This document shows, piece by piece, positions 5,717 to 38,200 of a stretch of 64,000 nucleotides of DNA. Both the position numbers and the translations under genes were made by a program. Position 1 is the stretch's first letter. Every line of letters begins with the position of its first letter. The DNA is from Lytechinus pictus. Lineage: Eukaryota. The DNA lies in assembly GCF_037042905.1 (NCBI RefSeq), contig NC_087251.1, positions 22,756,001 to 22,820,000 of the forward strand. Reading direction: 5' to 3'. The notes under the pieces are model-generated. The model worked only from the letters and a program-made list of their open reading frames with translations, searched no databases and was not told the origin of the DNA.

Positions 5717-7954
5717 TTAAGCTCTTGATGTTTTGAATATATTTTGGGAGTAAATAAGAGAAGACTACAATTTTTTTTACTGAATTTCCAACAGAAAAAA
5801 AAAAAACTAAATCATGGAAATTAAATGCCCCCCCCCCAAAAAAAAAAACCCTCTAAAGTTGACATTTTATAAGTTCATTCCTTATACATGTAGTCTCGGG
5901 GTATATTGAGTCTTGTCAATCTAGCGGGGGGGGGGGGGGGGGCAAGAAGAATTTGCACAATGGAAGAAAATGACATACTGTAATCTATGGGGTTTCAAAG
6001 CTTAATTTAATTAAATCAAGAAATGCTTTGTTTCATTTGAATCAATTATGCCAATTTTAGTTAAATCTATAAACAAAGTCCTTGAACTGCATATTTTTAA
6101 TTGGAGGAATTTAGATCAAATGCATATCTTTTTTTTTTTAATGGAAATTATTGGCAATAATAAACAAAAAGTACAAATGATACAAATTTTGGTGAGAATT
6201 TACAATTGGCTTTATGCATGAATCACATTCTTGAGTAATTCGGGGTCTGACATGCACTTGTGTAATATCATAACTGCATACCCATGCATGCATGGGTATG
6301 CGGTCTTGAATGATATGGCATGGCCCTGTCATGTTTATAGATTTATCATATAAATTTTTGAGGGGGCCATTGGGGTCCACTGGAATTGTTAGGGTTAAGG
6401 TTTGCTAGCTGGTTATCTTATACTGTTTAAAGTACTTTTCTTCATCTTTACAAAGCGCAAAGTTTCACATGCTTTCGTGTGTACCTCAAGTGTACGATGT
6501 CAGATTCACAATCTATTAATCGTCGCCTTCCAGCACAAAGGCCGTTAGTGCACACTGCGCGTCGCTTTCCCGCACAAAGGTCAGCGTGTCTTGCACGACG
6601 CCTTCCCGCAGAAAGGCCGTTAGCGTGCAGTTAACAGTGCGCGCTAACGGCCTTTATGCAGGAAGGCGACGCGCAGTGCCCTTATTCGTAAAATATTATT
6701 ATGCTTGTGCAACACTTCCATTTCATTAAAGTACTACTATGTATTTGAGCTTATTTTAAATAGTTTTTCTTTCCCTGTCCAAAACGTTAGCACAACACTC
6801 AGATATGTTTGTTAAAATGAGAATATTCGAAATATGGATTGATGTACACAATTGAACTGGGAAGAAAGGAACATGACAAAGCATTGGAAAAGGGGAGAAT
6901 AAAGGGGGAAAGAGAAAGAGGAGAAAAGTAGTGGTGTTGAGAAAGATTTTTAATTAGTTAGAAGAATTAATACACCACTTCAGAAATAAAAGTATGAAAA
7001 AAACATTCATCTAAAATTACATCCATGCAAATTTACAACACACAAGCCTATACCCATGTTTTTTTGTAAAAACATTTTTTTGTAAAAAAAACGGGTGTTT
7101 TAAAATGTGTTTTAAAACATGTTTTAAAACACACCGTTTAAAACATGCCAACCCTGATCAAAGTGCAATCGAATGACCCCGAAAATGTTTAAAGGTGATA
7201 TGTCAGTGTGGCTTACCGTAAACGCATTTTCTCTCAATGCCGACGGTGGCAGGCGGTGTGCAAAAAAGATCATGCCTACGTAGGACATGTCTGGAGGTGT
7301 CTTTCCAAGGACCATTCTTCGTATCGCCCAAATCGGCTTTGTGAAACAGTCGAGCGATATCTCGTTCTTACGTAGAACGGTTCTACCAGGGAAGTGTTAT
7401 AGAAAAGACCCTTACATGCAACAGGCCCCTGAAGTACCAATTCTCATAAAGAAAATTTTTCTTCTATGATATGCGTATGTTATATTTTATAAGTTCCTGT
7501 CATTTTGTGTTCATGTTTCTGACATAAAATTTGGATTTTAGTAAAGTCTGCATTGTTTATGAGATTATTCTCGTGTGAGAAAAAGTTAGACTTTTTATAT
7601 CTTTCTTTGCCATCCATATGGTTTTGTTGAGCTTACATACGTATGCGTTTCTTTGTCTTCTTCCTTCATGTGTACAGAACAAATTGTGACTTGAAAAGAT
7701 TCAAATTCTCCTGTCAAAGAAGGCTGACTTATAAGACATGAACCTTGCATGAGTGCCCCAAAGCTCGACTGGGAGACTTAAAATTCAGACCTGGTATCAG
7801 TCGGATCAACCTGAAGGCTAAACAAATGCTGTAAGCAGTCCTCTGAATTTGCTGGCTCTTAGTGTTTGAGATTACACTGTAATTCTTCACTTGGAAGGCT
7901 AGGAGTAGGACAGACGTTAAACGGTAAAAGTGAGGAGAAACGAGGCTGATCAGG

Positions 7955-8110
7955 ATGACCAGTGTTGGGTCATCATCAGTGGTGTGGGAAGCTCTGGGAT
8001 GCCTGGCAGGCATTGACTGGATCGCTCTCTTCTTTTGGTGTCTTATCACTTTCTCCCTCTGCCTTGTATCCATTCTTCTGATCAGTTTATTCCTGCCTGT
8101 CACAATAAAG
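7955..8110 (+). CDS. START gene coding exon 1 (hydrophobic TM/signal anchor)
   Basis: ATG at 7955; WIALFFWCLITFSLCLVSILLISLFLPV; AAG|GTAAGT donor at 8111, phase 0; probable acceptor tgtacag| at 7677. The link to exon 2 is inferred from phase and strand. Confidence 0.7.
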
Positions 8111-14100: not shown

Positions 14101-17100
14101 AGTACATTGCATGAAACTATAGATTTATATGTACAGTAGGATTAAAGTCCCCTTCAAGGCACTGGAAGGGGGTGTCTTACATGGCTTTGATAAAGTTTGA
14201 TGTACACTATACAGTGCGTATCAAAAAAAAGTTTACACTTTGAAAAAATCCTGTAAAATTATACATTTGTAATATCCTGAAGATTTTTCCACATTTTAAC
14301 ATTGGTACAGATCCATTTAAGCAAATGACAATATAACTGTCGAAAAATATTTCCGCTTGAGTGAGCACCACTTACTTTTGAAAAGTTAGTGAAAAATGAT
14401 TTGCGCAGAACTTTGAAATATACACAACAAAAAAAGTAAGTCCCCCCTTAAACAAACATCAATAATTTCCGAACCAATGCGAGTCTTTAATATATTTTTA
14501 CATGAGCGTGTAGGTAATTTTATAAGCTACCCTCTGAGTAAACGTTATGAACGTATTTCACTTCATGCTTCAGTGAGCACCGTCAGAAGGCAAAAATGTC
14601 ACTTTTCAAAAGTCACAAGCCAAATATCATGACTTTGATTCCATTTTATTGGAACTAATTCCACATTCTCATCATAAAAAATAGTCAGAAGGCTTGTAAA
14701 AGGTACTCTCTAAAAGACGATACAACTTTTTTGGCTAAATTTCACGGTTGAATAAACACAAGTCCAAATTTGCTATAATTGGATTTTTTACACATTTATA
14801 TCAATAAAAATTATAGAATATGATGACAGTTATTTTTGGAAGAGTTTCTTAAAAAATATTCATCGTTTCACGGTTCAATGAACATTTATTGAAAACAAAA
14901 AATACGATTTTCAAATATCATAGGCAAGTATTGGTTCATTTTGGGAACTGAAAATGATCTTTTCTCAACTTTTTCGTTATGGTCATGACCAATTAACATG
15001 CTTCAATGATTCAAAGGCGTTTAATTAAATATCCACGCTTGAATGAACATGTGGAATGCGATTAGCTCTTTTGTACGTTATTGGAAAAAATGCAATTTGT
15101 TACTATGGATATCTGTCACAAACCTCCTTGCATAGTTCATGTGATTCGATTATTATTCGATAATAAAGTGAATATTGGGGGCAAATTCTGTTTCAAATAA
15201 GACTTTAATTGCCAATGTTTTTATCATACATCATTTCTATCACCACACACTTTCCGAACTTTAAACATTTTCATGGTTGAGCAAGCACATTCGAAAACCT
15301 AGGAATGAATACTCTTTACACTGCATAAATGTATTCTTTTCCTAACAATTTCTCATGATCAGTTTAATTTATGGACAAATCAGTGGTGGGTCCAGAATTT
15401 TAAAATGGGGGAGGGGCCTACATGTATAATAGTGGGAGCCACCAACATTTTCAAATTTTAACATGATCTAACAAGTTGTAGAGGATAATACCATAAACCC
15501 CTATGATGATACGTCACAATACAGGGGCCGGGGAAGGGTTTTCAAAGTGGGGGGGGGGGGGCTGACCATGCCAAAAATCACAATCGTATGGTCATTTTTA
15601 CATTTTTTACATGCTTTTGGAAAAAAGTGGGGGGGGGGGAACTGAAGGTCCCTGCCCAGCCCAGCCCCCCCCCCCCCCCGCGGCCCCTGCAATACATTGT
15701 GCTCACTCAACCATGAACATATGATATCAAAATTGTTTGTGGAGTGGCTAAATGATGGATAGTAAAACAGCATAACACCATAAAATTCACCTAAAGACAA
15801 CATTTGCCCAACTTTGTATTTGCACAATCTGAAAAACGACTCTTGTGACTTTTAAAAATGGTTATTTTTAATTCAATCTTTAATTACTCATGCATGACTC
15901 AACTGATCAATCTTATTTTTCCCCAGGAGTTGCTTAATGAGTGTAGAAAACCACCTACAGAATATCATATCTCAAAATAATTCCGTTCAAAAGTTACAGC
16001 AATTTGATTTAGGGGGGACTTACTTTTTTTGTTGTGTATAGTTATGCGAATAAAAGTAGACCTTAATCATGAAGAACACGTGGAATTTAGCTAGTAAAAT
16101 TGATTTGAAAATATCTTTTACCTTTTTTTACTTGTTTTCTTGCCCAAAACACTTCGAAGAGTGCATTTCGCTCCACCCCACTCCCCCACACACCGAGGCC
16201 ATCGTGACGATATTTGCTTTACACTGAGCTGTGATTACATGGAATGGCTTAAGCTTGATTTTCATTTTGTTAATCATTGCCAAGCTTGGGAATAGTGTGG
16301 AGAAACAAGTATTAAATGAAACATGAAATGTAAACCCACTTTAAATGATAAAAACTTAGTAAAAAAATGCTGCAGATGTCTGATATAAACTTTTGTTCAG
16401 ATTCAGGTATGTCCTCAGATCCAGCTGGCAGGGTATTAAGGTTGTGCTTACTAAGTGTTGAAATTTAAATTTGGGTGGCAAAATTGTTACAAAAGGCTTG
16501 AATGTATCAGTTTTATTTCAATTGACTAAAAGTGCAAGGGAAATGTATGAGAAATGTTTCGCAGGGTAAGTTTGATTTCGCCCTTTCCCCTTGACACAGC
16601 GTAAAAACAAGCATTTCTGCGCAAACAGATTTCTGCGAGCTTTACAAAAATGGACAGTGCTCACTCAAGTGTAACATTCTGACAAAACTTTTACTTTCAT
16701 TGGATACATGAGACCCAATCCCAAGATTATATGTGAAAAAATTACCCACATGTTGTATATTTTTTTATTCCCAGGGCTTTTTCGAAGTGTAAACTTTTTT
16801 TTGATACGCACTGTATATACTGTATGCCTTACACAATATTTGAATCTCATCACTCTACTTGTTAATATATATTTTTTTTGTCACCAAATATGAAATATAA
16901 TGAAATAAGAAATTACATGTATTCTCAGACATACATGTATTGTATTTGATCCTAGGAACACTGCTTCAAACAGTTTTGCTAATGAATTGTTCAAATTACA
17001 TTTTCTGTCATTTGTGAAACAAACATTTTTTCTCATGTGGGTTATAGCAAGGATCAATGGTTTTAATGTGAGCTTGTTGAGCCATAAAACTGTGAAAAGT

Positions 17101-20100
17101 GTCAGGAAAGGTGTCACTATCATGGTTATTTAATTAGGAAGGAAACTGTCCATTGATTTGACATGATCGCTTTCATTCAGATCACACAACTGGCGGTTGC
17201 TTCAACTTCCTTAGTTTCATTCTGTAGACCTTTACTTGCCTATAAGTTGGGAGGGTACAGTGTACAATGTATGCCTAATGAAATAGTGTTTTCAAAGAAG
17301 TCAGCATTTTCTAGTGTAGCCGGAATTCATTTTTATACATTTTGGGAAATATCCAAAAGGTATTAAACATGTATACAATTTGCAGCATTATTGGGCATTC
17401 CCTGTTTTGTACTTTTATTTTGATCTTGGATCCAGAAGTCCCTTTTTTTAATAGATTGTTTGTGATGGTCCCAAGGTGCTAAAGGCTTATATTTTTAAAA
17501 AGACAAAATAATATCTTGAATGCACAGGATCATATTGTACATGTAGGCTCCTAAACAGATTTGAAAGAGTAGTGATTTTGATTGTTTGAATTATACAATG
17601 TTTCATTTTTTGCAGATTTGACCATAGGGACCGACTTGACTGAATCATATAGTGTTAAACAATGCTAATTCCACATGTTCAGGGAGGAATTAATCAGTTT
17701 CACTTGATAATGAGGAGAAAATTAGAATATTTCATATTGCATATAATAAAATACAAAAGAAATAGTGAGTGGATGACGTAATCAGTCTCCTCATTTGCAT
17801 ACCAACCAGGATGTGCATATAACTGTTTTGTGAAATTAAGCGAAAATTTAAAATGTCATAACTTTCTTATTTTACATCCGATTTTGATGAAATTTTCAGT
17901 GTTATGCTTGTTGGATTTATCTATTTTTCTTCAAATCATTTTTTTGTTAGGGTGGACTTGTCCTTTAAGCTTTATGTTTATTTTTGTGTGACGTAGAATT
18001 AGCTGATTATAGTAGAGCGGATTAGCCGAACAATTGTGCAAATTTTGACTAAAGCATGAAACTTTCACAAGTATAAGTATATGCCCTAAGATTTATTTTA
18101 AAGATGGGAGGTAAATTTTAAAATGCCATTTTCGGCCGTTGCCATGGCAACGGATTAATTTCTCAAAAATGACATACATTCCCATGTAAATGCTAAATAA
18201 ACATGATATAGATGACCAAAATGATAATTTTTAAGCTCCCAAATGAATATATATAAAATTTAGAAACATTCAAAATTAACAAGATAGTTCCAATTGGTCC
18301 GTTGCCATGGCAACGACTTGTTTTTCCCCAGAAAAATAAAAAAACTGATTAAAAAAACGTTGTAGAATAGGATTTATCTTTAATTTTCCCGAATTTTACA
18401 GTGTTGAACAATGATATTTTGGTTGATCAATGTATAAACTACATCTCAAGCCGTTGCCATGGCAACCAAATAACATCAATTTACAAAAATTAAATGGTTA
18501 ACAAGACAATGGACAGGTGGAAAATACAACTGGAAATGACTTAATCTGTATGCTTAAGTTTTGACCCCCTCATTTGAACAAAAAATACAGAAAGTGTTCT
18601 GCAGGAATTCTTTATAAAGATGAAACATTATGTTGCCTTGGTAATGCTTGAATTAAATTTAAAAAACAAATGTTCCAAAGATCCCGTTGCCATGGCAACA
18701 GCATATTTCCCTCTAGAAAGGTAAAAATATTGATAAAAATGTAGAATACGATCATCATTCCATTTTCAATATTTTTAAGGAACTAATAAAAATATATGTT
18801 TGTGACTGCATTTATAAATATAACATCTTAAGCCATTGCCATGGCAACCAAATAACATCTAATTTAAAAAAAATCAATGACAGGGATGACAGGGTTATGG
18901 ATAGGTGAAAAATCCAATGAAAATAACTTTTATGCATAAGTTTTGACCTACTCAATTAATTTAGGGGAAACAGTATACAGTGAGTGTTCTTCATGAACTA
19001 ATTAGAATGATAAACATTGATGTTACCTTAGTAACACTTGAATTCAACGATAAATATCAATGTTGCAAATGACCTGTTGCCATAGCAACGGCTCATTTAC
19101 GCAAAAAAGTTCTAGTTTTGATTAGAAAAAGGACTTTGGACTCTGATTTTTCTTTCATTTCCCCTAATTTAATGGTAAGAATTGATATGTTTGCTGTTAA
19201 CATACAAACAATATCTGAAGCCATTGTCATGGCAACCAAATTAATCTAATTTGAAAAAAAAATAACATGGTTGACAACACAATGGACAGGTGGAAAATAC
19301 AATTAGAATTGACTTAATCTGTATGCTTAACTTTTGACCCCCTCATTTGAACAAAAAGTACTTAAAATGTTCTGCAGGAGTTCTTTAAAAAGATATGAAC
19401 TTATGTTGCCTTGGTAACACTTGGATTAAATTCTTTTAAAAATGTTACAAAGGGCTCGTTGCCATGGCAACAGCTTATTTCCCTCTAGAAAGGTAAAAAT
19501 ATTGATAAGAATTTAGAATACAGACATGTATGATCATCTTTCCATTTTCAATAATTTTAAGGTACTAATCGAGATATATATGTGACTAAATTTATAAATA
19601 TAACATCTTAGACCATTGCCATGGCAACCAGATAACATCTAATTAAAAAAACAACATGGATGAGAAGGATATGGACAGGTGAAAAATACAATGAAAATTC
19701 ACTTGATGTGCATCACTGTATGCATCAGGATTGACCTCAATTAATCTAGGGGAAACAATACAATGAGTGTTCTGCATGAACTATTTATCATTCTAAGAAT
19801 GATAAACATTGAAGTTGCCTTGGTAATAATTGAATTCGATAAACATCAACGTTGCAAATGACCTGTTGCCATAGCAACTACTCATTTCCCCAAGAAAAGT
19901 ACCAGTTTTGATCAGAAAATCTGTAGAATCCGATTTTTTCCTTTCATTTCCCCTAATTTTAGGGTAAGAATGGATATGTTTCCTGTTAACATTCAAATTA
20001 TAGCTTAAGCCATTGTCATGGCAACCAAATAACATCTAATTTGAAAAAAATAACATGGTTGACATGATAATGGACAGGTGGAAAATGCAATCCATTAACT

Positions 20101-23100
20101 CAAGGTTTGACCCAGTCAATTAATTTTGAACAAAGATTACAGTGGTTCGCATTAGTTCATTAGAATGATAAAATTTGAGGTTGCCTTGGTAATGCTTGAA
20201 TTTAATGATAAATATCACTGTTACATATAGCCCGTTGCCATGGCAATGACTCCTTTTTTCCCGAATAAAGTACCAAATTTGATCGAAAAACAGTTTAGAA
20301 TCTGCATTTTGTCATAAATTTCCCCTAATTTTAGAGTGCAAAGCATTATGTTTGCTGTTGATATACAAATAACTTATGCCATTGCCATGACAACCAAATT
20401 ACATCTAATTCCAGTGGCTTAATGTGGTTTATATGCAATGGTTTTAAGGGTGAAGTAGTATATTGTGACTAGTTACAAGGACAGCCAGTGGTCTGATGTG
20501 TCCAAGACCCTGAGACAGCTTCCAAAAATGGAGTTTGAAATGGCTGTTGATATATAAATGGACATACAGTATCGCTCGAAATAAAGTTGACACCATTAAC
20601 GGACGTAACGCCGCACCGGCCCGTACTGCGTTTATTTTTTCATTAACGTTCACGCGCGTTATTGCCAGCGCGGAAGGATATCAAACAAAAACCAAAAAAA
20701 AAGTACCTCGTAGACGTACGTCGCATTATTATCGCGATACAATGAACGCGATAATAGCGCAATAAACAGGAAGATTGTCATAATAAGATGAATCGGCGCG
20801 CCGATGTTTTACTAAAACCTCGTGTAAATATCTTGAAATTTACTACCCTCACGGAGATCGAAATCCAGGAAATCCAAGGGTGTCGATTTGGGTTGATTAA
20901 CGGTGCGCTAGTTGACAAGTCAACAAACTCAAGCCGTCTCGGAGGAGGTGACATGGTTTGGCCAGACCTCGGAGATGCCAGAACACTCGTCGTCTCGTGC
21001 CATCATTTGTACCGGTTCACAATATTTATCTCACTCCAAACCATTATTTTACCAATTAAAAACTCTGACAGTATTTGACATTAATACACTACAAAGTTTA
21101 TTGTTCATTTTCAAGTATTTAAATGGGATGCTACCAAATTCATTTCAAAATTTTTATACTTTGAATAAAACCATTCATGATTACCCCACCCGTAATTCCT
21201 CTAATTTACATTTAGTCAATCCAAAACTACGTATTGCCCAGAGATCCGTAAGACATCATGGTCCTGACCTTTGGAATCCTCTCCCAGACTCAATTAAATC
21301 CTCTTGCTCCCTACACTCATTCAAAGCTTAAGTGAAGGTCATGTTACTATCGGAATATGTAAAATAAACTTTCTTGTGTCATAATCGTGATCCAATATTC
21401 CGTTTCCATCATCATTAACATTATTTCCACCACCACCACCGTCACCACTATCATCATCATCATCATCTTCATCATCTTCATTTGTCATTATCATTATTAT
21501 AATTTTTTTTTTTTTTACTTGATTATATATATTATAGCAAGTTTTGGCTTGTTAGATTTTGTTCTTCTCTTTTTTATATTATACTTAATTGATACTTTAA
21601 TAATTTGTTATTGTCCATTCTGCTCATAATATGATTATATGGTTAAAATATGTTTCGGTTTGTCATATTTTTCAAGCATTTTTTTGCTTACTATGGCAAT
21701 CCATCTTCTGCTATTAATTTTATGCTAAATGATTTATACCTGATTTATTGTCAATATATGTTTGTTACATTTATGTTATATTATATTGTTATGTAGAAGA
21801 AAAATAAATTCAAATCAAAATAAAAAATCATGAGAAAGCTCGATCCGTTCTGATTTGGAGTTCAGTTGTTTTCCCCATGATTCATTAATATACTCGTTTT
21901 AACTAGTGTCACTTTTTAAGAATTCTCAATTTTCTTATCTTGTTTCACTCTCTTTAAATGCGTGTAGTTTGTGCAAGCGAGACCAACTCACGGATACATG
22001 GGGGCAAGAACAAAAAAATTCCTGGTCATATCATGGTAACACGAACAGGATTTTTTTATAGTTGTGCTCGGGCATTATTAGCTCAATGCGTGATATTTAA
22101 ACACAAAAAGAGGGGGAACATCATGGTGACTTCTCTTTTATTTCATTTCCTTTTCGCCATTGTCAGAATAATGCTTCTTTTATATTTCTTAGAGAGTTCA
22201 TAACAAAAGGTATATAAAATATATGTTAACTCCTTATAGCATCTCAAAACAATTTTGAAACATGTCCTGATCATTCGTTCATTAAATCTGAGATGTTTGT
22301 GACTTCTATTTTATTTCCTTTTGCCGTTGTCGGAATGTTTCTTTATATTTCTTAGAGAGTTTATAACAAAAGGTATATAAAATACATTTTAACTCCTTAG
22401 CACCTCAAAACAATTTTGAAACATATTCTGGTCATTCGTTCATTAATCTGAGATGTTTGTGAATTCTCTTTTATTTTGTTTCTTATTTGCCGTTCTCGGA
22501 ATAGTGCTTCATTTATCTTTCTTAGAGAGTTCACATCGAAAGGTATATAAAATATATTTTAACTCCGTAGCATCTCAAAACAATTTTGAAACATGTCCTG
22601 ATCATTCGTTCATTAATCTGAGATGTTTGTGACTTCTATTTTATTTCCTTTTGCCGTTTTCATATTTATATATATATTTCTTAGGGGGTGTTGCAAGAAA
22701 ATATTTGCAATTCAATTGCAAATATTCTGTTGCAATTTCACAACTGATTTTTACAACGTTAGCTGTAGCAAATCAGATTAAACTTCTTGTTTCAAGGAGC
22801 AGATTAACAATCAATCACTAATTTGCAATTAATTACAAGACTTATGATTGATTTTGGGACCAAGAATAGACTTGCAATTGATCGCAAGTTTCTTGCAACA
22901 CCCCAATAGAGGGCTCATAAAGAAAGGTATATAAAATATATTTTAACTCCTTGCACCTCAAATCAATTTTGAAACATGTCCTGATCATTCGTTCCTTAAT
23001 CTGAGATGTTTGTGACTTCTCTTTTATTTTACTTTCTGCTAAAGAGTTAAAATATATTTATATACCTTTCGTTATAAATTCTCTAAGAAATATAGAAGAA

Positions 23101-26100
23101 GCATTCATATTCCGTCAACGGCGAAAAGGAAATAAAATAAAAGAGAAGTCACAAACATCTCAGATTAATGAACGAATGATCAGGACATGTTTCAAAATTG
23201 TTTTGAGGTGCTAATAAAGGAATTAAAATATATTTCATATACCTTGATCCTTAAGAACTAAGAAATATAGTCACTGCATAATGAGTGATTTCATGCAACG
23301 GTCTAGAGTGGGCCATAATGTGCCTGCACGTCTATCATGTACTGTGTTATAGAAGCGTTGGTGTATGGTTGAAGTTAATGACCCTATATAGCTACTACGA
23401 CCCGTTGAACCTGACTGGGATCAATATTCGTCAATTACGCCGTCTAGCACGTTTTGAGAACAATGGACGAAGGTGTGAAAATCACAAAGCAGCCAACAAT
23501 AGGAAGAATCCGTTTCAATTGAAGTTATGCTCAGATCTCTTGCGTAGCGGTTTGAATGTGAATTAACCCTGAATGGTCTTTATGATAAAAAAAACATTAC
23601 GCCTATTTTATCTTCAAGACAGTTATGAGAAAAAAAGGATAAATCAATGAAATAATTAATGTATGTGTTTTACTTTTTACAAACGTGTATCGATTGAACA
23701 TCTTATTTGCTGTATTGATGAAGAGTGCCACCCACTGGGCAATTTGTTACCGATTACCAATTTTACCGGTTATTACCGGTAATATCACCCGGAAATTTGA
23801 GTAACACCAAATATTACCGTTATTACCATGTTATTACCGAAATTATAATTCCTGTTGATACCTGTTACTGTTATCACCCTGATGAAACCTACATTTACCT
23901 AGTTACAACAGGGTGATGAGGGGTAATAAGGGTAATGTTGAATGACTTTGATTGGTTATAACATTGCAAACTTTAGTAATAAGAGCAATCTTACAGCAAT
24001 CCCAGCGAAATTTTCAAAGTCCAAAAAATTACTGTTATCACCCTGATGAAACCAACATTTTACCCAGTTACAAACAGGTTGATAAGGGGGTAATGGGTAA
24101 TGTTGAAACGCTTCCATTCCCAGACAGCAACGTATCTGGATCACATACGGTTCTTATCTGGGATATCTGGGTCCCATATGGGCCCACATGGAACCCAGAT
24201 GAAAACATATACTTGAACCCACATGGTGCCCAGATAGGACTCAGATGGAAACGAGACCTCCAACCCATGCGGAACCCATTAATATTGGGTAAATGGAGTA
24301 ATATCAGATGGTAATATCAGGAAAATGCTGGGAATATTAGTTACTCATGAATATTCATTACTACAATAAATGGCCAAAATTTTAGCTAATATAGCTGTAA
24401 TAGTTAATGTGTTTATGTTTATGCAATTATTCCACCCAGAAAATTTTCAGAAAAATGTGTAGTTTATATATCATATTAGTCATAATCATGACATTAATTT
24501 TAGAAAAATGTTTTAGGGTTGAATAATTGTTAACCATAATTTGTCAAGTGTTGTAAACTCGCTCAATATATAGAAGTAAATGACAGGGTTTGGTGGATAG
24601 GTGTAGGATAGGATTAGGATTAGGATGTAGGATTTTAGGATAGGATAAGATGATATGGCTTAGAGTATGGAGTTGTAAAAATGTGCTTCAATGACCCTAA
24701 TGACACTAATTGTTTTTTTAATGAGCCGACATTAATTGGGTAATATTGGGTAAACAGAGTAATATGAGGTGGTGATATCATTAAAATGCTGGAAATAGTA
24801 GTTACATCATACTGAGAAATATTGGGTAAATGGAGTAATATCAGGTCCAGGTAATAAGAGGGAAGGATTGGTCTACTATTTCCCTGTTATTACCCACTGT
24901 TGTTACCGTAGTAATATCCATGTTATTACCTGTTACAACCCGGGTAATGTCAGGTAAAATGCCCAGTGGGCAAGGTCGATGACATGATTTATTGATAATA
25001 CGCCATTTGAGTTCTCAAATAATGGTACAAGATTTTAGAAAAAGAAGTTTTGAGTGTCGTCTCGTTTATATCAAATCTCAGCAAAATTTAAAAAGTTTCT
25101 GAAATGTCATTACTTTGAAAGTATGCACTTCATTAAACTTGCACATCAGGGTGGTCTCCCTTAAAAGGAAAACATTTTGCCCTATCAGGGTGCAACTCCC
25201 CTTGTAAGGAGACAAAGGAGCTGCACCCCTTCCCCATTGTCAGCGGAAATGAAGAAAGTGATTACTCAGAGAAGTCGGAGATGGAGGGGAGAAAGAGCAA
25301 GAGGAAGGTAAGGATCTGTTAAAGAATATTAAAAAATAAAATGAAAGAAACATAAACAGAACGGGGGGGGGGGGGGGGGCGGCGGAAGGAGAGGTTGGCC
25401 AAATAACCAATTATAAAAAACATTTAGGTCACTGTATCAAAAGCAAGTTCAAGTTTATTTATTCAAAATTTAAAAAAAAATCACGTTATAATAAAAAAAA
25501 GGCCTACATGCGATGCAAGTGACTACAGTAAAAGTATAATTTTGTTTAAATGAAATGATATGTATGTACTCTGCCTTCTATCTCTTTTTTCCCCTCTTTA
25601 TTTTCCTGATCACTTCAATCTTTCGTAATTATGATTTATCATTAAATTTATTGTGAACACTTTGATGTAAAGGATTGGTATGTGATAATTTATTAATAAA
25701 ACATAAGTTAAAAAAAATTATAGTATAGACAAATTGGTTAATTAAAGCCCCCCCCCCCCCCCCCCCCGTGGTGCAAATCTAGCTGGTCCAACAGTTGGGT
25801 AATAACAATTTATATTGGCCTGATCAGACCCCCTTCCCCGGGCGGGATATAAAATACGGGAAAAATAACCAGGGGGTATAACATATTATGCAAGCTGATC
25901 TGAGGCCCCATGCACTGTCCACATTTATTATTATTCTAAGGTTGCGTAGAACATGTTTTAATCCTGACAAAATGGCTTTTATTATATTCTATTGTATTTT
26001 ATTTTCACCATTCGTTGTGCCCAATCTCGGCTCCAACTACTCTCTTCCTTTCTATTCGTTTCAACGTTTCCTCTGCCTCTACATCGGGGGACAGGGGTGT

Positions 26101-26198
26101 GCGGCTGAAGGTTCAAAACCAATACCCACTCAGGGTCATTTCGGCTAAAAGGTACCCATTATTAGGGATTTATTAAAATTTGAACCCCCCCCCAAAAA

Positions 26199-26229
<31 letters not shown>

Positions 26230-29200
26230 TGGAGAATATGGGCCCATTTTTAAGGCCAGTATCTAAAACTTAGGGCCATGTTTAGGGAATTTCCAGCATA
26301 AAACCAAACCCCACGTTTAGGGATTTCTTCCAAAAAAAAAAGCGACCCATTCCAGCGGCACATCCCCGTATGCCTTATTTCGTGAGAACACCCCCCCCCC
26401 CCCCGGGCTCTGAAGGTATTCAAAATTTTCTGAACGCTAATATATTTGACTTAATTGCTCGTAATTAATTTCCTCGTAATTTTTATATTATGGCTCGACT
26501 GCATTGATTTTTTATTTGCATTTTGCAGATACCATATTAAGACTCGTGTCTATCTATTAAAATTAGATCCAACTACTGTCTTGGAGAGAAGCGACTACCA
26601 CATAAAGGGCCGCAATCGGTCATGCATTGAAGTTTTATTTATACCGGTATTAGAAATATGTATTTGTTTGCGATTTTGGTATATTTCTCCTAGGGCTGGC
26701 TTCAAATTGTAAATTTTGTGCGTGCCGTGGAATTGTTTAACACAACTTCCAAGTCCGGACGGCTGCACACGCGTTGAGCCCGTTGACTGTAATGTACCGC
26801 CTACCGGTACCGGTAGATCCACCGTCGTCTCGACTGGAGTGAAAGGGTCTAGTCACTTGTCCAACTACAAAGTACAAGAACAAGTTCTGCTTTTGCCTGA
26901 TCTTTGGCAGAGCCTTTCTATTTCTAGGCTCAGGTTGTGGAGTAGGGATTTTCGTTTATTTCGTTCTCTGCTTATTTTATTGTTATTCTTTTACGGGCAT
27001 TTGAACTAATTAGTACTTTCTGGTACTAATGTCTGGCCAGGATTAAACTTGGGGGTAAATCGCGGAATTTTCTGTTTATGGGGGGGGGGGGGGGGTGGGG
27101 TCGAGTACAAAGTCGGACATCAAATTCTTAGCAAACGTGTGGATGCATACGTTATACCGGATGTGGTTTATAAAGATATATAGGTCGATCGATATCTATT
27201 GTTAGGTTAAGAGTAAGGATCAGGACATCATGTAAAGGGTGTACATGCCCGGGGTACATGCTAGCTCGGAAGGACAGGTGTGGAAAAGTAGATCAGCCAA
27301 TTACCTAATTGTGAGAACAAATCCTCTTCTTTTTGACCTTCTTTCAAGCCTATAATTCAATTTTTCTTTAAAATTTTGGAAAATGTAGTCCTACCAAAAA
27401 CCATCATTCTTACAAGTTAAAAAAATCACGTTTCTTGGAGAAAATCCATGCAGCGTGTTTCCTTCCCCTTAAAAATCCCACACTTAGGCAACTTTTAAGA
27501 AGTCACCATGTAATCAAAATAATGTTTGCCTCACTGTAATGGAAACCTTACGATAAAAATAGACATAAGGAGAAAATTTTGTCCATTGACATCGTATGCC
27601 ATTGATTATGTTACCTGGTTATTGTTCATTCGTTCACTATGGGTGGAATCCCGAACCAACTGGAGAGTTGCAGCTCTGTAATTACCGATAGCTTGAAGTA
27701 GAAGTTCGCCTTGGTGACAAACACGCGGTGAAACTGTTCAGTATATAGGACTTACCTTTAATTTTCAAATGGAATCTCAAAAAAAAATAAAAAATGCATA
27801 CATGCCCCCTCCCCACTGCCATGTCATCACCATCGCCATAATCATCATTGACATATAATTATTGTAATCATCAAACTTTTAGGATTATTATCATAATTAT
27901 TATCGGCACCTTCATCACTATCATCACCGTCAACATCATAAAACATTAATTAATCATCACCGAGGGGGCCGAAGCAGGGATATATCCTATGTTCATAGGG
28001 TGCATCAATATTTGTCCCCCACCGCAAAATATTATCTTCTGATCCGCCGCCCATGATCATCACTATTATTGCTATTATCGGGATTATTTCATAATTCTAA
28101 TGATCAATTATTAAGATCATTATTACCATCATCATAATCTCAACATTATTATCATCATCACCATTCTTGTCATTGTCATCATCGTTAGGATTACAATCAC
28201 AATCATCACCATCATGATCACCGTCATTACCTTTCTTTTCGATATCATCATCACGATCATAATACCCATCACTGTCATCACGATCATAATAACCATCACT
28301 GTCATCACGTAAGTTACTCAGAATACTGATTTAAAGACTGCCTAATTCGACGAATTATTCACTCAATTATTGTTTCAAACGTAAGCTTAAGTTATACCTC
28401 TTAGAGAGGTACAATGCTGCATCGTACTGATGAGCTGCAAATAATAATTATTGTAATTGTGTTTTTCTATTCTTTCTTTCAGTATACTCTCTATTAATGA
28501 ATGAACACAAAATTATCATAACGGGGATCATAGTAGGCGGAGAAATAGGAAGAAAAGAGAGAATTATAGGGAGGTAAATTATGTGATATTCCCTCAAAAC
28601 AATTATCATGCTTGAAACAAAATCACTAAATCTATTTTTTAACACTTAAGAGGTCCATATTTTGGTAATTCTTAGCTTACATTCGTGTAATTGCACGCAA
28701 GTTAAATCAATCCATTATAGGGCTCGGGTCTCATTTGAAAAAAAAAACCGGTATAGTGGTAGAATTAATGATAACATCGACGATTATGATAATAATGATA
28801 ATAGAAATAATAGTAGTAGTAATAATAATGATGCAAAAAGCTATGTGACTCTAAATACGGGCCTTGAGATTTGGCTCAGCCAGCAAAGAGTCAACATCAG
28901 GCAGATACTCGGACCCTAGCTAGAGCTGGAGAAGGAAGAAAGAACAAAATGGATAATTATTGGTTGGGTCTGAGCATGTAATAGGTCCATGGTCTGAGGG
29001 ACGATTGTGAGTAATTTATTTCAACGTTAACAATTTAAGTACTTTGCTTGGGACAGCTGCGCTGGCATACAAACTCGTAGTCAGCGTCTATCAACCCATT
29101 TCATTTCGCACGCGCGTACGGCGGAGAACTGAGGCCAGGAACCAAGATTGTTTGCTGGCCTGGCCAGGCATGTGATGCGCGGCCGAGTAGATTCTAGATT

Positions 29201-32200
29201 CTTATTCTAAAGCAGAGCGATTCCACTGATCGCTACATGTGAGTTGTTTTCCAAGCCAATCAGTTATCGAAAATGTAATTGAAAGAAATAATCTATGCCC
29301 ATAATCTTTGCGAATGATATAGAAAAGGTTCGCTGATTGGAGTCCTATCGCGATAATTATCGCAGCTCGAGACAGTAGTTCGCGGCCGTGGCCGTGCGCC
29401 GAATCACCGGCAAGAACACGGCGATATCTGCCACAGACTGGCCTGACGTTCACGCGCGTGAATATTGCGATAGTCAGACCCACATCGATTAGCGCGTTTC
29501 ACGTGCGTTATCTGTCAACTTTATTTCGAGCGATACTGTAGCTTATTTCATATCCGTCTGGGATATATGATTTGGTGTCTAGACCATGGTTTCAATGGTC
29601 AAGTAATACACTATGACAAGTTACACGGACAGTCAGTTGTCCAGTATATTTAAAAAATCCAAGATGGCTTTGAAAATAGAGTCTAAAATTGTTGCTGCTG
29701 CATTAAAAAAACGTAGATTGTTTAATAGCCTGGAATAAGTTTATGCCATGGTGAAATGTGTCAAACTATACATTAGGACAAGTTACAAGAACACTCAGTG
29801 GTCAAGTATGTCAAAAATCCAAGGTGGCTTCAAAAAATGGATTATAGAATAGCCCTGTTACTAAAGAATTGACATATTTCGTGTAATATCTGCCAAGGGC
29901 ATATTATTTTGATATCAAAACCATGGTTTTAAAAGTCAGTAAATACATCATGACATGGAACAAGTTACAAGGACAGTGAGTAATCCAATATGTCTAAACA
30001 TCTAAGATGGCTTCAAACAATCGGGGTTTAATTGGAGTCTGTTGCTTAAAAATTGACATAGTTCATTGAAAGTCAACCAAGGAAAAATGATTTTGGTGTT
30101 CAAACTTTGGTTTAAAGTTTCGAAAAATACGTTTAGACTTGTTACAATGATATCCAGTTGTCCAAATTGCCTATTGTACTCATGCAGAACACTTACTGTA
30201 ATTTTCGTTCAAAACTTAAAGGAGAATGAAACCTTTGGAACAAGATAGCTTGTGTGAAAACAGAAAAATCTAAGAAACAGATCAATGAAAGTTTGAGAAA
30301 AATCGGACAAATAATGAGAAAGTTATGAGCTTTTGAATATTGCGATCACTAATGCTATGGAGATCCTCACATTGGCAATGCGACAAAGATGTGTGATGTC
30401 ACTCTTGAACAACTCTCCCCATTACTTTAGTATATATTTCACTTAAATTGCCTCTTTTATTACATCTATCAGTAGAACATGTATTCTTTCTATAGGAGGG
30501 CATGTAATACAGATTTTTAAAGAATACATCATGGATAAAGAGTTTGTATCACCATACGAAAAAGCAAAAAGACACATTTTCAGGGTCCATCAGAGGGAAG
30601 TTGTTCATGTGTGACATCACACATCCTTGTAGCGTTGCCAATGAGAGGATCTCCATAGCATTAGAGATTGCAATATTCAAATGCTCATAACTTTCTTATT
30701 ATTTGTCTGATTTTTCTTTTGTTTCTTTGTTCTTATTCTTTGATTTTTCTGTTTCGACACAAGCCTACTTGTTCCAAAGGTTTCATTCCCCTTTAATGAC
30801 TGGTCAAACATTATGGAGCTTTTAAAAGTAAACCTTTATTTTACATCCCACCTGACCATTATCATTTCAACAGTAATTTTTTTTTGTATTTATAAATTAC
30901 ATCTTGATTGGTTGCCAAGGCAATGGCTGAAGATGTTATCTACATATTAACTGCAAACATATATTTTCTAACACCCTTAACTTAAAATGAAAGAAAAATC
31001 AGATTTTATCATGTTTTTATTTATCAAAGCTGCTGATACTTTTCTGGGGGAAATGAGCTGTTGCCATGGCAACAGAACATTTGAATTATTAATATTTATC
31101 ATTTAATTCAAGAATTACCAAGGCAACATCAATTTATTATTCTAATGAACTCATGCAGAATACTTAGTGAATTTTTTGTTTGAAATTAAATGACTAGCCA
31201 AACCTTTCGCATATTGAGTTATATTTGTATTTTCCACCTGTCCATGATCTTGTCATCCAAATTTTTATTTTTTTGTGAATTAGATATTATTTGGTTGCCA
31301 TGGCAATAGCATTAGATTTTATTTAAACAATTTGCATCAAACATATCTATGTTTAACACACTAAGATTGGGGGAAATGCAAGAAAAACCAGATTCTATAG
31401 TCCTTTTTTAATAAAAACTGGTACTAAATGATCCGTTGCTATGGCAACAGGCAATTTGCAACATTGATATTTATCGTTGAATTCAAGTATTACCAAGGCA
31501 ACATCAATCTGTATCATTCCAATTAGTTCATGCAGAACACTCACTGTATTATTTCCCCTAAATTAATTGAGTAGGTCAAACCTTATGCATATACATAAGT
31601 TAATTTTCATTGTACTTTTCACCTATCCATAACCTTGTCATCCCTGCTGTTGTTTTTTTAATTAGATGTTATCACGTTGCCATGGCAATGGCTTAAGATG
31701 TTATATTTATAAATGTAGTCACAATTATATTTTGATTAGTTCCTTAAAAATATTGAAAATGGAATGATGATCATACATGTATTCTATATTTTTATCAATA
31801 TTTTTACCTTTCTAGAGGGAAATAAACTGTTGCCATGGCAACGGGATCTTTGCAACATTCGTTTTTTTAATTTAATTCAAGCATTACCAAGGCAACATAA
31901 TGTTTTATCTTTATAAAGAACTCCTGCAGAACACATTCTGTATTTTTTGTTCAAATGAGGGGGTCAAAACTTAAGCATACAGATTAAGTCATTTCCAGTT
32001 GTATTTTCCACCTGTCCATTGTCTAGTTTACCATGTTATTTTTGTAAATTAGATGTTATTTGGTTGCCATGGCAATGGCTTGAGATGTAGTTTATACATT
32101 GAGCAACCAAAATATCGTTGTTTTACACTGTAAAATTAGGGGAAATTAAAGATAAATCCTATTCTACAACGTTTTTTTAATCAGTTTGTTTATTTTTCTG

Positions 32201-35200
32201 GGGAAAAACAAGCCGTTGCCATGGCAACGGACCAATTGGAACTATCTTGTTAATTTTGAATGTTTCTAAATTTTATATATATTCAATTGGGAACTTGAAA
32301 ATTATCATTTTGGTCATCTATGTCATGTTTATTTACCATTTACATGGGAATGTATGTCATTTTTGATAAATTAATCCGTTGCCATGGCAACGGCCGAAAA
32401 TGGCATTTTGAAATTTACCTCCCACCTTTAAAATAAATCTTACGGCATATACTAATACTTGTGAAAGTTTCATGCTTTAGTCAAAATTTGCACAATTGTT
32501 GTGATTTTTGGAGCTAATCCGCTCTACTATTATGTGTGTACACTACAGTATGTTCGGGGTTACCAATAAAGTTTGTGAAATTTACCAAGAAAGTAATTTG
32601 AAAATGTGTTTATGGGGGATTTCGAAAAATATATGAGGGGCCTCCTTGGGTGTTTACTTTTCTTAACTGCATGTTATAAACAAGTGCAATGGATATCAAG
32701 TGTTGAGAGTAAGAGGAAGTGAATCCCGGATCTAGTCTTGTCTCAACCCTGGTTAAAAGTATTTCCTGTCAACAATCATCATGTGTAGTTAAAGGCAGTG
32801 ACTCCAATCACTCTATGTCAGTGTACTGTGCATATTAGATTCCAGTCTGTAGAAGGGCACTTTAAATATTTTTCAGATCCACAATCCATGATACAAGATA
32901 AATTTAATCATTCTTGAAATTGAAAATACAACTTCTGTGTTCTGAATCAGTTCCTGGTAAATTTGTAGATCTATACCTCAATTACCCTAAAGATTCCAAG
33001 AAAATGCGAAATGGTTTCCAACATCTGATCTGTCCTGTAAGATAAGGACAGGTGCAAGTCCCATCACAGGCATACATGTACACACATAAAAAACAAAACA
33101 TACTCCCACGACCAGCCAAACACACATTGACTTTAATTGGGCTCATTTGGTATTTATGTGGTCCCTTTCAAATGGATTCCTGTCAAAGTTGGACTGTTGA
33201 TGGCTTCATCATGCTCCTAGAGCTGACATTTTCATTAAAAGTCATTTACGAACTAAAAAGAAAATAATAGTGAAGTCATCACTTTGATGTACTATATTTT
33301 GAATAAGGAAACATGAGGGATACAGCTCAAAAGTCTAGTCAGGGTAATGTAAATAACACCACTGTCATCCTTCCTTCTGTAGGCCTACACCTGTTTCCTT
33401 CTTCAGATACTGAGGTTTAGGCCTATAAGGGCCGTCTGCACCATCCCAAGTTTTCAAATTAGCGCGCTATATCTGATCCGGCAAATTATCCTGATCTGAA
33501 CAATCTCGAGATTATTTGCAATGGAGACGCAATTATCGCGCTAGTTCGTAGGATTAATCGCGAGATTGCAATCCCAAGTCAACTTGGGATTATTTGCAAA
33601 ATAGCACGCTATTTTACGAATTATCGCGCTAATTTGTAGGTGCAGACGCACTCAGGATTACTTATTCACGGCGTCAGACCATAATGCATCAATGCCTCGC
33701 TCGAGCAGGAATCGCTCTTCTTGCGATGGTGGAGATGGGGTTTCTTGAATCTCAAGATTAATCGCGAAGAGGGCCGATTGGGCTAAAGTCTCGAGATTGA
33801 GCAAACTTGGGATGGTGCAGCACCGCCTACTGTGTACTGTAGCTGAAAGGAAACCCAGAGACTTTTTTTTTAATGAAAGTATGAAAGTAAGAAGGCCATG
33901 TCACATACATGTACTGCCATCTTATGATATGATAAACAAGTGCATGGTTTTCAGTCTTTAGCATTGATTTACACTTTAAGTCCCCACCTTTCTGCAATGC
34001 GTAAAACAGAAAAATTTAATCTAATTTTGGAAGAACCAAATTTCACAGAAACTGCCAACAAATTATAAAAGTGAATTGCGAAAAAACAATGAAAATAAAA
34101 GAAAAAATCTGATAACCAATGTGCATCAGTGGAAAATCTTCCAGTCGTGCCTGTATTACATGTAGTTCGACCAGCTTATTCTCCATACTGTAGTGCGTGT
34201 GTACATGTACATAATGGAACCAAAGGTTACAATTTTTAATTCCATTATCATCTAGGTTTTTTTTACATGTCATCAAAGAGCACAAAATTCGCATTTTAGA
34301 AAACTGGGGACTCTGCTTTACAGGCATTTCAACGTTGGCAATTGGTAGAATGGACAGTCTCCCATCCATTAGTATATCAATTATTGCAGCCTTCAAACAT
34401 ATGTATTGAAAAGATAGCAGTTGTATTCCTAGATGACAGTTGAGATCAGGCTCTCAAACTTAAAGTGGGAAATTATTCTCCACTCTCCACTTTTCCTTCT
34501 CTTTAAATAAGTTACCATCTTGTCATTAAAATCTAAGGGTGTGTTCAATGTCGGTTTCCAAATTTAAACGGCAACATGAAACGTTAGTGAAAACGTCAAA
34601 CGTGATTACAAAATGCGGATATAATGAGAAACAAAGAATGTGTTCAATGTCCTCCATTCCTGGTGGTAAAAGTAAATGTCTGTAAAATCATGATTCTGAG
34701 AAAAATTTAAAGGTTGAAAAAGATGCGTTTGTAAAAGCGAACAGCTCATATTTTACGACCTTGAGCATCGCGAATGCGACATTGAACACAATTGAGTTTT
34801 GAAACGTCTTTAAATTTGCTCTTGCAGTGGAAGCCTACACAAACAGGTGCCAGAACTGACCTTTCTTGTGATTGGTCAAAATGCACTCTAAAACTGCGAT
34901 ATTAACAAAAGTGGGAAATTTAAAGACGATCAACATATAAACGGCTTTATAATTTGAACACTGAACAATGCACTGCTGATCGTGTTTGTGTTCGGTGATT
35001 TGTTATTGAGTTTTCAATCATGATTCATGTTCCTTTTTAAATTTGAAAATCGACATTGAACACACCCTTTATACCCAGTAAATATTTCCTTCTTCAAATC
35101 ATGTGGGGGGGGGGGGCTATCTAGACATAAGCATTAATGACAAAGGACTTCAATGAAGATTTCATTGTAGTATGGAGATTTGAAGATTTGATTAGAGACA

Positions 35201-38200
35201 CAATTTCAGAGAATTTGGGCAGATTGCCACAAAATTTGTAGGTTAACAAACTTTTGTACTACATGTAGCTAAATAAATGGAATTATGAAGGAAATGACAA
35301 CTTAAGCTTTGCCTCTCATTCACTTCTGAAGTTATCTTACATGTACAGTATTTCAATATGAAGATAAATATACAAAAGTGTTTTGTTTTTTTCAAAATGG
35401 GAGTGAAAATGAAAAATATCAGGTTTTGCAGAATAACATGAGGAAATATTTTTTATTTAGTAACAGACTTTCAGTCATGTAATTTTGAAAAACATAAAAT
35501 ATTCCTGTTAATATATATTGTCTCGCCTGCATAGCAGAGCGAGACTGCGGCGGCGTCAACATCAAATCTTAACCTAAGGTTAAGTTTTTGAAATGACATC
35601 ATAACTTAAAAAGTATATGGACCTAGTTCATGAAACTTGGCCATGAGGATAATCAAGTATTACTGAACATCCTACCTGAGTTTCAGGTCACATGACCAAG
35701 GTCAAAGGTCATTTAGGGTCAATGAACTTAGACCATGTTGGGAGAATTATTTTCAAAATCTTAACCTGAGGTTAAGTTTTTGAAATGACATTATAACTTA
35801 AAAAGTATATGGACCTAGTTCATGAAACTTGGGCATAAGGTTAATCAAGTATTAGTGAACATCATGCTCGAGTTTCAGGTCACGTGACCAAGGTCAAAGG
35901 TCATTTAGGGTCAATGAACTTTGGTCAAGTTGGGGGTATTTGTTGAATTACTATCATAACTTTGAAAATTTATGGATCTAGTTCATGAAACTTGGACATA
36001 AGGTTAATCAAGTATGAGTGAACATCCTGCCTGAGTTTCAGGTCACATGACCAAGGTCAAAGGTCATTTAGGGTCAATGAACTTTGGCCAAGTTGGGGGT
36101 ACTTGTTGAATTACCATCATAACTTTGAAAATTTATGGATCTAGTTCATGAAACTTGGACATTAGGTTAATCAAATACCACTGAATATCCTGTGCGAGTT
36201 TCAGGTCACATGACCATGGTCAATGGTCATTTAAGGTCAATGAACTTTGGCCATGTTGGGGGTATTTGTTGAATTACCATCCTAACTCTGAAAGTTTATA
36301 GATCTAGTTCATAAAACTTGGGATATAAGAGTAATCAAGTATCACTGAACATCCCCTGTGAGTTTCAGGTCACAAAACCAAGGTCAAAGGTCAGTTAAGG
36401 TCAATAAACTTAGGCCATGTTGGGGTAATTGTTGAATTGCCATCATAACTTTGAAAGTTTATGGATAGAGTGAATGAAATGTGGACATGGGTGTAGTTGA
36501 CAAGTCTTAAGTCACCGTTCAAATGTCGTTTATGGTCAATGAACGTGGTATTATGTCATTATATGAATGGTGTTTTTGTGAATGATTATTTGATTGTAGT
36601 TTTCAAAGTTAGCACTGCTGCTATATTAAATTGCGTAATGCAGGCGAGACTGCCAGAGGCGTTCCACTTGTTTGAACTTGCTCTAGGCTGCAGCTGTGTT
36701 TAAAAGATAAAGTGACACATCCTTTAAAGAACAAGGATACTTCAATCTCAACAATTGCATGTTTCTTTCGAAATTACAAACTGAGACCCAAACTGGCTTT
36801 CTCCATTCTTTTGCTTCTCTTTGCACTAAAAAAGTAGTTGTCAACCTCTTTTTATCATGATTTGGATTTGATATTCTCATTTTTCTTCTTATTTCCTTAG
36901 CATTCTTCCTTTTATTCTTATTTTTGTCTATAGGAGAATGAAGGACTACATACAGATGATCTTGGGCAACCACCTCAGGGACTAGAAGTCTTCCAACAAC
37001 TCTTCTCCCAAAAGGTAAATTGGTTATCTTCCTCATCATCGTCATCATCACTACTACTATTATCATTAAAAGCTATTTGAATTTTTTATAGGGGCTTTGC
37101 TTTCATGTAATTCATATACAATTTTTTACTGTACATGAACAAAAGTATATAATTTTTGAAACATTTACAATATTGGGTGTTGAAAAAAAAGTAATCCAAT
37201 TTACCATCTCTGTGCATTCTTCACAATCTAGGTTCACTCAGTCTCTATTGTTCAGTTTGGTCTGGGCATTGTTACATTAAAATGTTGATATTGGTAATGT
37301 TGTAATCGTATTTAAACTTGATTTTGATTGGTTGTTGAATGTTGAGCAGTGTAACCATACAAAGTAGGATGGCAAAGCTACCATAAAGTAACTTTTGTGC
37401 AAGAGGGCCTGTGATGTCACAGAATACAAGCTGGTACTGGAGAGATAATCTTTGTATCGTAAAAACTTGAATTTGCAGATTCTCCCAATAGATTCCAGCA
37501 CAGGTTGGCAGCTACTAGGTGTCCAACATGATCTCCGGTGTTGGGAGAAACAGGTTAGACTTGGTGGGAGCTACTACAGTCTTCATGGATCAAGTGCTAT
37601 TGTTTCATCCAGTGCAATGGTAAGTATATGGGGGAAAACTTGGTATATTCAGACCATCTTGAAGTTCAAGAGTTCCAGATATTCTCTGATCTGGAATTTT
37701 AAAATACCAGAATTTTACAAAAAATACAAATTTTTGCCTATGTGAAAGCAAAATACCCTTCATATCCCCAAAAGAAAATACCCGCACAATAGTAGGTTCT
37801 TGCTGAAATAATTGGAACTTTTGCAAGGATTTTTCCAAGGTCGCAGGTATTTTGGCAGTGTGAAATCAAATTACAAGACCTTTAGCCATACAGCATGTGG
37901 GTGTGAGCGCCATGGCCTTGCCTGCTAATCCGACCATACTGCACATGCTCGTATCTTTGAGAACTTACACCGAAAAGGTGTACTTTGTGTCGGTGTGAAT
38001 GCATAGAAATTAATTATCAGATATTTCTTAGCAAGCCTGAACAAGTAATTTCACAGGTACTCTGGTGATAGAGGCGGTCTGAATTCACCATATGACTTCA
38101 ATTCACAAAGGTGGTGTTGAATCTATGGTTTTAACCATTATTTTTTTTAACTTCATGCATTAATTAGCTTAATTGATTGCACTTAGAAAGCATCCAATAA

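Follow-up and report, generated by a model that had tools for sequence, protein, structure and literature searches.

TAG...CTA termini are a hallmark of Academ transposons, a superfamily whose AcademX lineage is associated with Kapitonov and Jurka (2010) and Kojima (2020). We analyzed a 64-kb stretch of the genome of the sea urchin Lytechinus pictus (contig NC_087251.1; hereafter the window, in whose coordinates all positions are given). It contains, at 18010-32529, an element with such ends, and the long inverted arms of this element hold arrays of sites resembling the X-box, the binding sequence of RFX proteins. Passages in the published descriptions give target-site duplications (TSDs) of 3 bp for Academ (PMC5199201) and of 3 or 4 bp for AcademX (PMC10045372), and a mean length of 5,565 bp for autonomous bivalve Academ elements (PMC10294476). 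The window element resembles these in its 3-bp TSD and in its native length of about 5.0 kb. It differs in having no transposase or nuclease gene, and in its arms of 1.7-2.4 kb, which consist of ~385-bp units, every unit having three X-box-like sites.

For the X-box, a passage of PMC3414849 quotes the consensus GYTRYYN(1-3)RRHRAC, and a table in PMC5449588 gives the 16-mer CGTTGCCATGGCAACG for RFX4. The window element shares with these the exact consensus at 14 and 16 bp, as well as the RGYAAC half-site. Whereas the known X-boxes lie near the start sites of ciliary genes, the sites predicted here form tandem arrays in a mobile element.

Long unequal arms of tandem units around a non-coding middle are also found in foldback elements such as Drosophila FB and Galileo and sea-urchin TU. 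Their units measure tens of bp and their TSDs 7-9 bp, whereas the window element has ~385-bp units and a 3-bp TSD, and the box conserved in its arms is the established consensus of a host factor. Conserved boxes as such are familiar from foldback arms; we found no X-box arrays in transposon arms or in Helentrons in the literature searched (which did not take in Repbase Reports or most subscription journals). Host DNA-binding proteins assist several transposons, including IRBP (Xrp1/Irbp18) for the P element, HMGB1 for Sleeping Beauty, and IHF for Tn10 and Mu. The likeness to these systems is a predicted host-protein site whose position close to the transposon end is fixed; the difference is that an arm here has as many as 18 copies of the site, which is common to two transposon classes. 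The second class is represented by Helentrons of the HINE/DINE-1 type, which, according to a passage of PMC4067079, have central tandem repeats, a 5' subterminal inverted repeat (subTIR) with an inverted repeat, a 3' subTIR with a stem-loop, and T-rich flanks. The window element shares the tandem repeats with them but has true terminal inverted repeats (TIRs) and a TSD, and lacks subTIR and stem-loop ends. HINE-like metagenome loci carry the same palindrome as the window element, at ~150-bp steps. To our knowledge, it is unexplained why non-autonomous transposons of marine invertebrates keep long, box-bearing tandem arrays.

Unequal ends and arrays of X-box-like sites

The element at 18010-32529 is the only TAG...CTA element with matching 3-bp flanks that we found in the window. 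It begins at 18010 and ends at 32529, and TTA stands on each flank. The features on which the argument rests are as follows.

18007-18009, unstranded: left target-site duplication, TTA
18010-18029, plus strand: short end, with a 17-bp outer TIR (18010-18026) and a 3-bp spacer; the inner TIR starts at 18030
18137-18152, unstranded: outermost site, an exact 16-mer CGTTGCCATGGCAACG
18010-20412, plus strand: left arm, with the terminal X-box at 18138, six ~385-bp units (the sixth partial) and 18 X-box-like sites
30797-32529, minus strand: right arm, with four units, the terminal X-box at 32378 and 12 X-box-like sites
32500-32529, minus strand: long end, with a 17-bp outer TIR (32513-32529) and a 13-bp spacer (32500-32512)
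32530-32532, unstranded: right target-site duplication, TTA

An earlier, sequence-only reading of this DNA had described Academ-like ends on a large foldback element. Its TAG...CTA termini, 3-bp TSD and non-coding body are confirmed, but it overlooked that the ends are unequal, the right end being 10 bp longer because a 13-bp rather than a 3-bp spacer follows the common 17-bp TIR. None of the 7 open reading frames (ORFs) of at least 70 amino acids tested from inside the element had a Pfam match, nor did any of the 13 ORFs tested reach the Pfam cut-off; the Academ domain had no Pfam model at the date of PMC5751038. Rfam returned no match across 17000-34000.

Contigs of four runs from two organisms (X1, X2, X5 and X7) were aligned to 32260-33440. 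In three of the four (X1, X2 and X5), loose ends with other flanks occur at 32529/32530, bearing out the boundary of the TAG-starting TIR, and read depth falls by about two orders of magnitude at this terminus, which shows a sharp boundary and not a copy number. The short-end form was found among other copies at 32500, in one contig of X1 and five of X7; both end types therefore belong to the family. CAA follows the end of a copy in run X2. One X1 contig of 1,053 nt, at depth 3, matches the stretch 32529-33440, and its letters before 32529 are unaligned and are not element sequence, which suggests an empty allele of this insertion; the insertion is probably not fixed. That this contig starts at 32529 favors a TTA duplication of 3 bp over one of TA, to the extent that one contig at 1-nt resolution can indicate. 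The TTA/TTA flanks fall within the 3-4 bp of AcademX. A passage of PMC4455052 gives the Repbase rule for non-autonomous elements, by which the terminal 11 bp should match those of an autonomous element, here an Academ element. The end pattern of the window element had no match in metagenome or prokaryote contigs. We hold it to be highly probable that this is a transposon with Academ-like ends, a judgment far surer than the step to RFX discussed below.

The two arms align as inverted repeats at 84% identity over 1,695 columns, and the two outer units reach 96% and 92%. Such long, internally repetitive inverted arms belong to the foldback structural class. They had been put at about 2 kb each; the inverted arms are real, but the left measures about 2.4 kb and the right 1.7 kb plus a severed remnant. 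The nine perfect copies of GTTGCCATGGCAAC reported before were all recovered in place, and some 22 palindromes counted by eye compare with 23 sites within two mismatches in the arms (14 left, 9 right). Across the whole window there are 25 such sites, against 0.12 expected from 100 shuffles, and the arms hold 30 X-box-like sites once those of the GTTGCCTTGGTAA type are included. Nine sites are perfect 14-mers. Four are perfect 16-mers (CGTTGCCATGGCAACG, at 18137, 18300, 32214 and 32377); these are the two outermost sites of each arm and occur nowhere else in the window. A perfect RGYAAC half-site is retained in 29 of the 30 sites, and 14 fit GYTRYYN(1-3)RRHRAC. The first X-box lies 128 bp from the left end (18138) and 138 bp from the right end (32378). 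C precedes GTTG in 12 of 18 half-sites of the window, a count of little weight since these are related copies and not independent.

Each unit has the same order: a near-perfect site A, a site B that usually reads ATTGCC..., a TGGACAGGTG box, and a site C (GTTGCCTTGGTAA). The alternation of ~150 and ~235 bp in a ~390-bp unit that had been read from the letters holds, with 141-157 bp from A to B, 233-250 bp from B to the next A, and units of 369-407 bp. The third type of site, C, had been missed. Site C lies 51-54 bp upstream of the next A (54 bp in 6 of 8 full units), whereas the distance from B to C ranges over 168-199 bp. A higher-order dimer of ~780 bp, also proposed before, is real in the left arm, where L2 matches L4 at 87% and L3 matches L5 at 84% while the remaining non-mirror unit pairs share 62-80%; the right arm has no such additional dimer.

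Beside the 30 X-box-like sites, the 4.1 kb of arms contain 7 CAGGTG words. Loose contig ends were also seen within the right terminal arm, at 32359-32370 and 32408-32416. Other sea-urchin repeat families, in both organisms, match only the ~85 bp at 32323-32408 that surround the terminal palindrome, and differ from the element on either side. The X-box module appears to be common to several families within Lytechinus.

We calculated column identity over eight non-redundant units, leaving out R1 and R2 as mirror copies of L1 and L2. The sites are better conserved than the spacers, as had been suspected by eye: identity is 0.94 for A, 0.92 for B, 0.95 for C and 0.94 for the TGGACAGGTG box, against 0.67 for 330 spacer columns, and these four are the four best 14-column windows. 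The fourth-best window (0.905) exceeds the fourth best of every one of 2000 column shuffles (maximum 0.876). The gap persists in G/C columns alone (0.90 versus 0.58) and likewise within A/T columns. This conservation lies among old paralogous units and therefore predates the insertion. It is an old property of the family, and not demonstrably one of this locus.

The same palindrome in metagenome repeats

A metagenome scan for two exact palindromes 149-179 bp apart returned at least 120 loci, which look animal-derived, judging by eye from their RING-finger and C2H2 ORFs. The paired palindrome was found at 0 loci in viral contigs, and in prokaryote genomes it matched once (L129), with 0 genuine occurrences. 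The match in L129, at 10001-10169, was rejected as an assembly artefact in which one sequence is duplicated on either side of an N gap. The single 16-mer has 8 isolated matches in viral contigs, none with a second perfect copy. The whole window element had no blastn match to the 120 metagenome loci. End probes assigned 33 of the 120 listed loci to H1, 17 to H3, 6 to H2 and 4 to a TAG-ended family, and 60 to none of these.

A member of the TAG-ended family (L067) is a complete TAG...CTA element of 1,137 bp with ATA on both flanks and with short and long ends that differ by 10 bp. Its first palindromes lie 129 and 139 bp from the ends and the next, at the long end, 163 bp further in; the corresponding distances in the window are 128, 138 and 163 bp. 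Two further members of the family (L057 and L085) have short-end offsets of 129 and 128 bp; a fourth (L063) is identical to L067 over 1,100 nt and was counted with it as one site. The offset of the first palindrome from the end was not selected by the scan. With palindromes masked, the ends of L067 and of the window element align with a score of 18, against a shuffle mean of 19, and the metagenome family is, as far as such comparison goes, without detectable similarity to the window element outside the palindrome.

The palindrome also occurs in a different transposon class. Helentron/HINE anatomy was found around it in 15 H1 loci among the 120 listed, with one doubtful 5' call (L018); none of the 15 is among the blast matches of the TAG-family unit. 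Among spacings outside the scan selection, 133 fall at 140-159 bp, near the size of one nucleosome core. A search that made no use of the motif identified 142 sister units in 68 loci; in these the motif is 85% and the spacers 76% identical, and the motif scores higher in 108 of 142. C or G flanks 82% of 650 half-sites in the loci, again of little weight, these being related copies and not independent.

Several loci of other animals have long arrays of 6-13 X-box-like sites with a 145-165-bp period (L004, L078, L048, L062, L053 and L033), and in two of them (L004 and L078) the arrays stand in both orientations. The window itself contains two related Helentron-like arrays, at 35547-36488 and 48590-49405, with units of 192 and 163 bp and 89% alike. 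The first holds four GGTCAAAGGTCA words, which we take to be nuclear-receptor direct repeats. This suggests that distinct repeat families carry distinct host-factor words.

Candidate docking arrays and rival explanations

Considering these observations together, we propose, at a probability of roughly 0.45, that the element is a non-autonomous AcademX-type transposon in whose arms a host protein, most likely RFX, docks on arrays of sites that aid the spread of the element. This exact sequence is known to be bound by RFX. The arms would have expanded through tandem amplification of the ~385-bp unit, and the X-box-like sites would be docking sites of a DNA-binding protein, most likely a host RFX dimer that opens chromatin or organizes the ends in the germ line. 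Docking would take place at a set distance of 128-139 bp from the cut, and then further in at about 150-bp steps. A transposase acting in trans, presumably of AcademX, would cut at the TAG ends, and would pair a short end with a long end that differs from it by one helical turn. The sites would be kept by selection on the transposon family, as site-bearing copies would spread better, and not by selection on the locus. The copy in the window sits in an intron and holds the two nested insertions described below. Use of host RFX was one of the options raised by the sequence-only reading, and it gains weight since families of another transposon class contain the same site.

Several results weigh against this proposal. 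The full consensus is failed by 16 of the 30 sites, and one site is without a perfect half-site. Between the left and right arms, the motifs are not significantly protected, differing at 4 of 112 positions and the remainder at 55 of 952 (p=0.51), in a test of low power. The TT/AA positions of the sites are the least altered, but substitutions in the sites are mostly G/C-to-A/T transitions, a pattern expected equally from mutation bias and from RFX tolerance. Motif content and the one spacing, including the 163 bp of L067, were pre-selected in the metagenome loci, and the agreement in end offset comes from two families. The motif is no better kept than the spacer in 34 of the 142 sister units, and the arm unit of L067 is 67-75% identical to units in some HINE-like loci, outside the 15 with HINE anatomy. 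Such unit sharing between TAG-ended and HINE-like families means that recurrence in those animals is partly module swapping and not independent origin. Finally, the Helentron-like array at 35547-36488 has neither an X-box nor an X-box half-site.

Alternatively, the palindromes may be bound by a transposase of the element itself or by a second protein that it encodes, their likeness to RFX sites being convergence on a dimer palindrome. Foldback, Mutator and CACTA elements have subterminal repeats for their own transposase or for a second protein, and arrays of conserved subterminal boxes are common in TIR elements generally. The fixed distance to the cut end in two unrelated TAG-ended families (128-129 and 138-139 bp) also favors transposase sites. 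The consensus match to RFX extends to 16 bp at the outermost sites, however, and the identical 14-mer is found in HINE-type families, which are moved by a rolling-circle protein. A single transposase would not account for both classes. We consider this explanation unlikely and favor a host protein: a transposase site would account for the constant offset while leaving its occurrence in rolling-circle elements unaccounted for, whereas a host protein accounts for both.

It is less plausible still that no protein selects the motif, which would instead be maintained by fold-back repair or conversion, or would follow a nucleosome-sized repeat period, and be spread by module swapping. The 133 non-selected spacings near a nucleosome core are consistent with this explanation, as are the units common to TAG-type and HINE-like families and the lack of arm-to-arm motif protection. 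Self-repair cannot explain the conservation, because B (ATTGCC...), C (GTTGCCTTGGTAA) and the TGGACAGGTG box are imperfect palindromes and are conserved as well as A. The nearly fixed distance from C to A also argues against it. We rejected palindrome self-repair as a whole explanation, as asymmetric sites cannot be held in this way.

We find it improbable that the array is a cis-regulatory RFX enhancer or sponge selected by the host, acting on the surrounding START-domain gene or on a ciliary programme. What speaks for such a role is the location in a first intron and the density of motifs, with 7 CAGGTG words together with the 30 X-box-like sites in 4.1 kb. The motif conservation is older than the insertion, however, lying as it does among old paralogous units; the depth-3 X1 contig leaves the right flank into non-element sequence, so that the insertion is probably not fixed; and the ends are dispersed at many other sites. 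An enhancer or sponge role for the host gene, which had been suggested earlier, is thus unsupported: the insertion looks polymorphic, and the motifs are unprotected between the arms, as the comparison above indicates.

Membership in another superfamily is hardly credible, whether in PIF/Harbinger, where a TWA target duplication accompanies all copies, or in a TA-target group with GTAG...CTAC ends: the TTA flanks and a reading of the ends as TA-GTAG...CTAC-TA would allow it, but the flanks vary (CAA at the X2 copy, which is not TWA, and ATA/ATA in the unrelated L067), and we rejected a TA target given these other flanks and a putative empty-allele contig that starts at 32529, as a 3-bp TTA predicts, and not at 32528.

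The proposal of host-protein docking arrays has a broader form, in which invertebrate DNA transposons, cut-and-paste Academ-type elements and rolling-circle Helentrons alike, share RFX as a host helper that opens or organizes their ends in RFX-rich germ cells. Both would do so through arrays of optimal X-boxes spaced roughly like nucleosomes, with a conserved offset of 128-139 bp from the cut in Academ-type ends. We regard this broader form as possible and rather doubtful. The box is an exact host-factor consensus, has a conserved distance to the end in two otherwise dissimilar families, and recurs in a second transposon class. The question of RFX is directly testable by gel shift together with a transposition assay. 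If the proposal is true, a regulator of cilia and sperm would be tied to germ-line transposition, and thousands of dispersed arrays would form a large reservoir of RFX sites in competition with ciliary and spermatogenic promoters. Enrichment of RFX motifs in invertebrate genomes may likewise stem from repeats.

Nested insertions, core and host intron

The description of the element as giant was not borne out. Two nested insertions, at 20567-29538 and 30220-30792, carry TIRs and TSDs of their own and make up 9.5 kb of the 14.5-kb span, so that the native element is ~5.0 kb (4,969 bp). The remaining features of the element and its surroundings are listed here.

8111-36933, plus strand: host intron with GT..AG borders, 28.8 kb, from L. 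variegatus orthologue model P0002
20413-20566, plus strand: left piece of the core, a single direct-repeat unit (~165-180 bp) belonging to a second array
20567-29538, unstranded: nested element of 8,972 bp, flanked by a TA duplication (20565-20566 and 29539-29540), its perfect 26-bp TIRs starting with CAGT
29541-30180, plus strand: right piece of the core, three to four further direct-repeat units, no ORF
30180-30219, minus strand: inner remnant of the right arm, matching left-arm units at 77-90% over 21-44 nt, severed by the insertion listed next
30220-30792, unstranded: nested 573-bp miniature inverted-repeat transposable element (MITE) with a TTAA duplication (30216-30219 and 30793-30796), breaking the right arm

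The 8,972-bp element, presumably Tc1/mariner-like by its ends, interrupts the core array and is not native to the element that hosts it. The core array spans both sides of the insertion, the unit at 20413-20566 being 71-76% like the units at 29570-30060. Its ~165-180-bp units contain GACAAGTTAC and AAGATGGC words; the latter, exact in some units only, resembles what we take to be a YY1 site.

The 8,972-bp element itself contains further insertions. We identified in its interior a 3' fragment resembling a long interspersed nuclear element (20912-21328), 170-bp repeats that form a foldback (22126-23269) and enclose a MITE at about 22684-22907, an element with CCCACTGGGCA ends at about 23731-24971, and stretches resembling splice sites near 25300, 26530 and 27630-27750. 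This unit may carry a spliced gene or captured host DNA.

An exon at 42158-42436 matches a START-domain protein of Lytechinus pictus at 100% identity. In the orthologue model P0002 from L. variegatus, the intron is bordered by coding exons at 7955-8110 and 36934-37014 with GT..AG junctions, which places the element in the first intron of the START-domain gene. The intronic position inferred earlier is borne out by these flanking exons; the placement in the first intron rests on P0002, as the L. pictus models P0001 and P0003 begin later. An ORF at 33749 was considered as a host exon and rejected, being absent among the exons of the host protein. The segments 7955-8110, 36934-37014 and 37479-37619 are intact exons that encode ~125 additional N-terminal residues of the START protein, hydrophobic and membrane-like, which are left out of P0001 and P0003. 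The L. pictus annotation of this gene may be truncated.

Two other repeats lie in the window. One, at 17657-17979, is 87% like 5414-5733 and stops 30 bp short of the left end of the element. The other, within 62410-63721, is a 548-bp stretch present as a direct (97%) and an inverted (96%) repeat.

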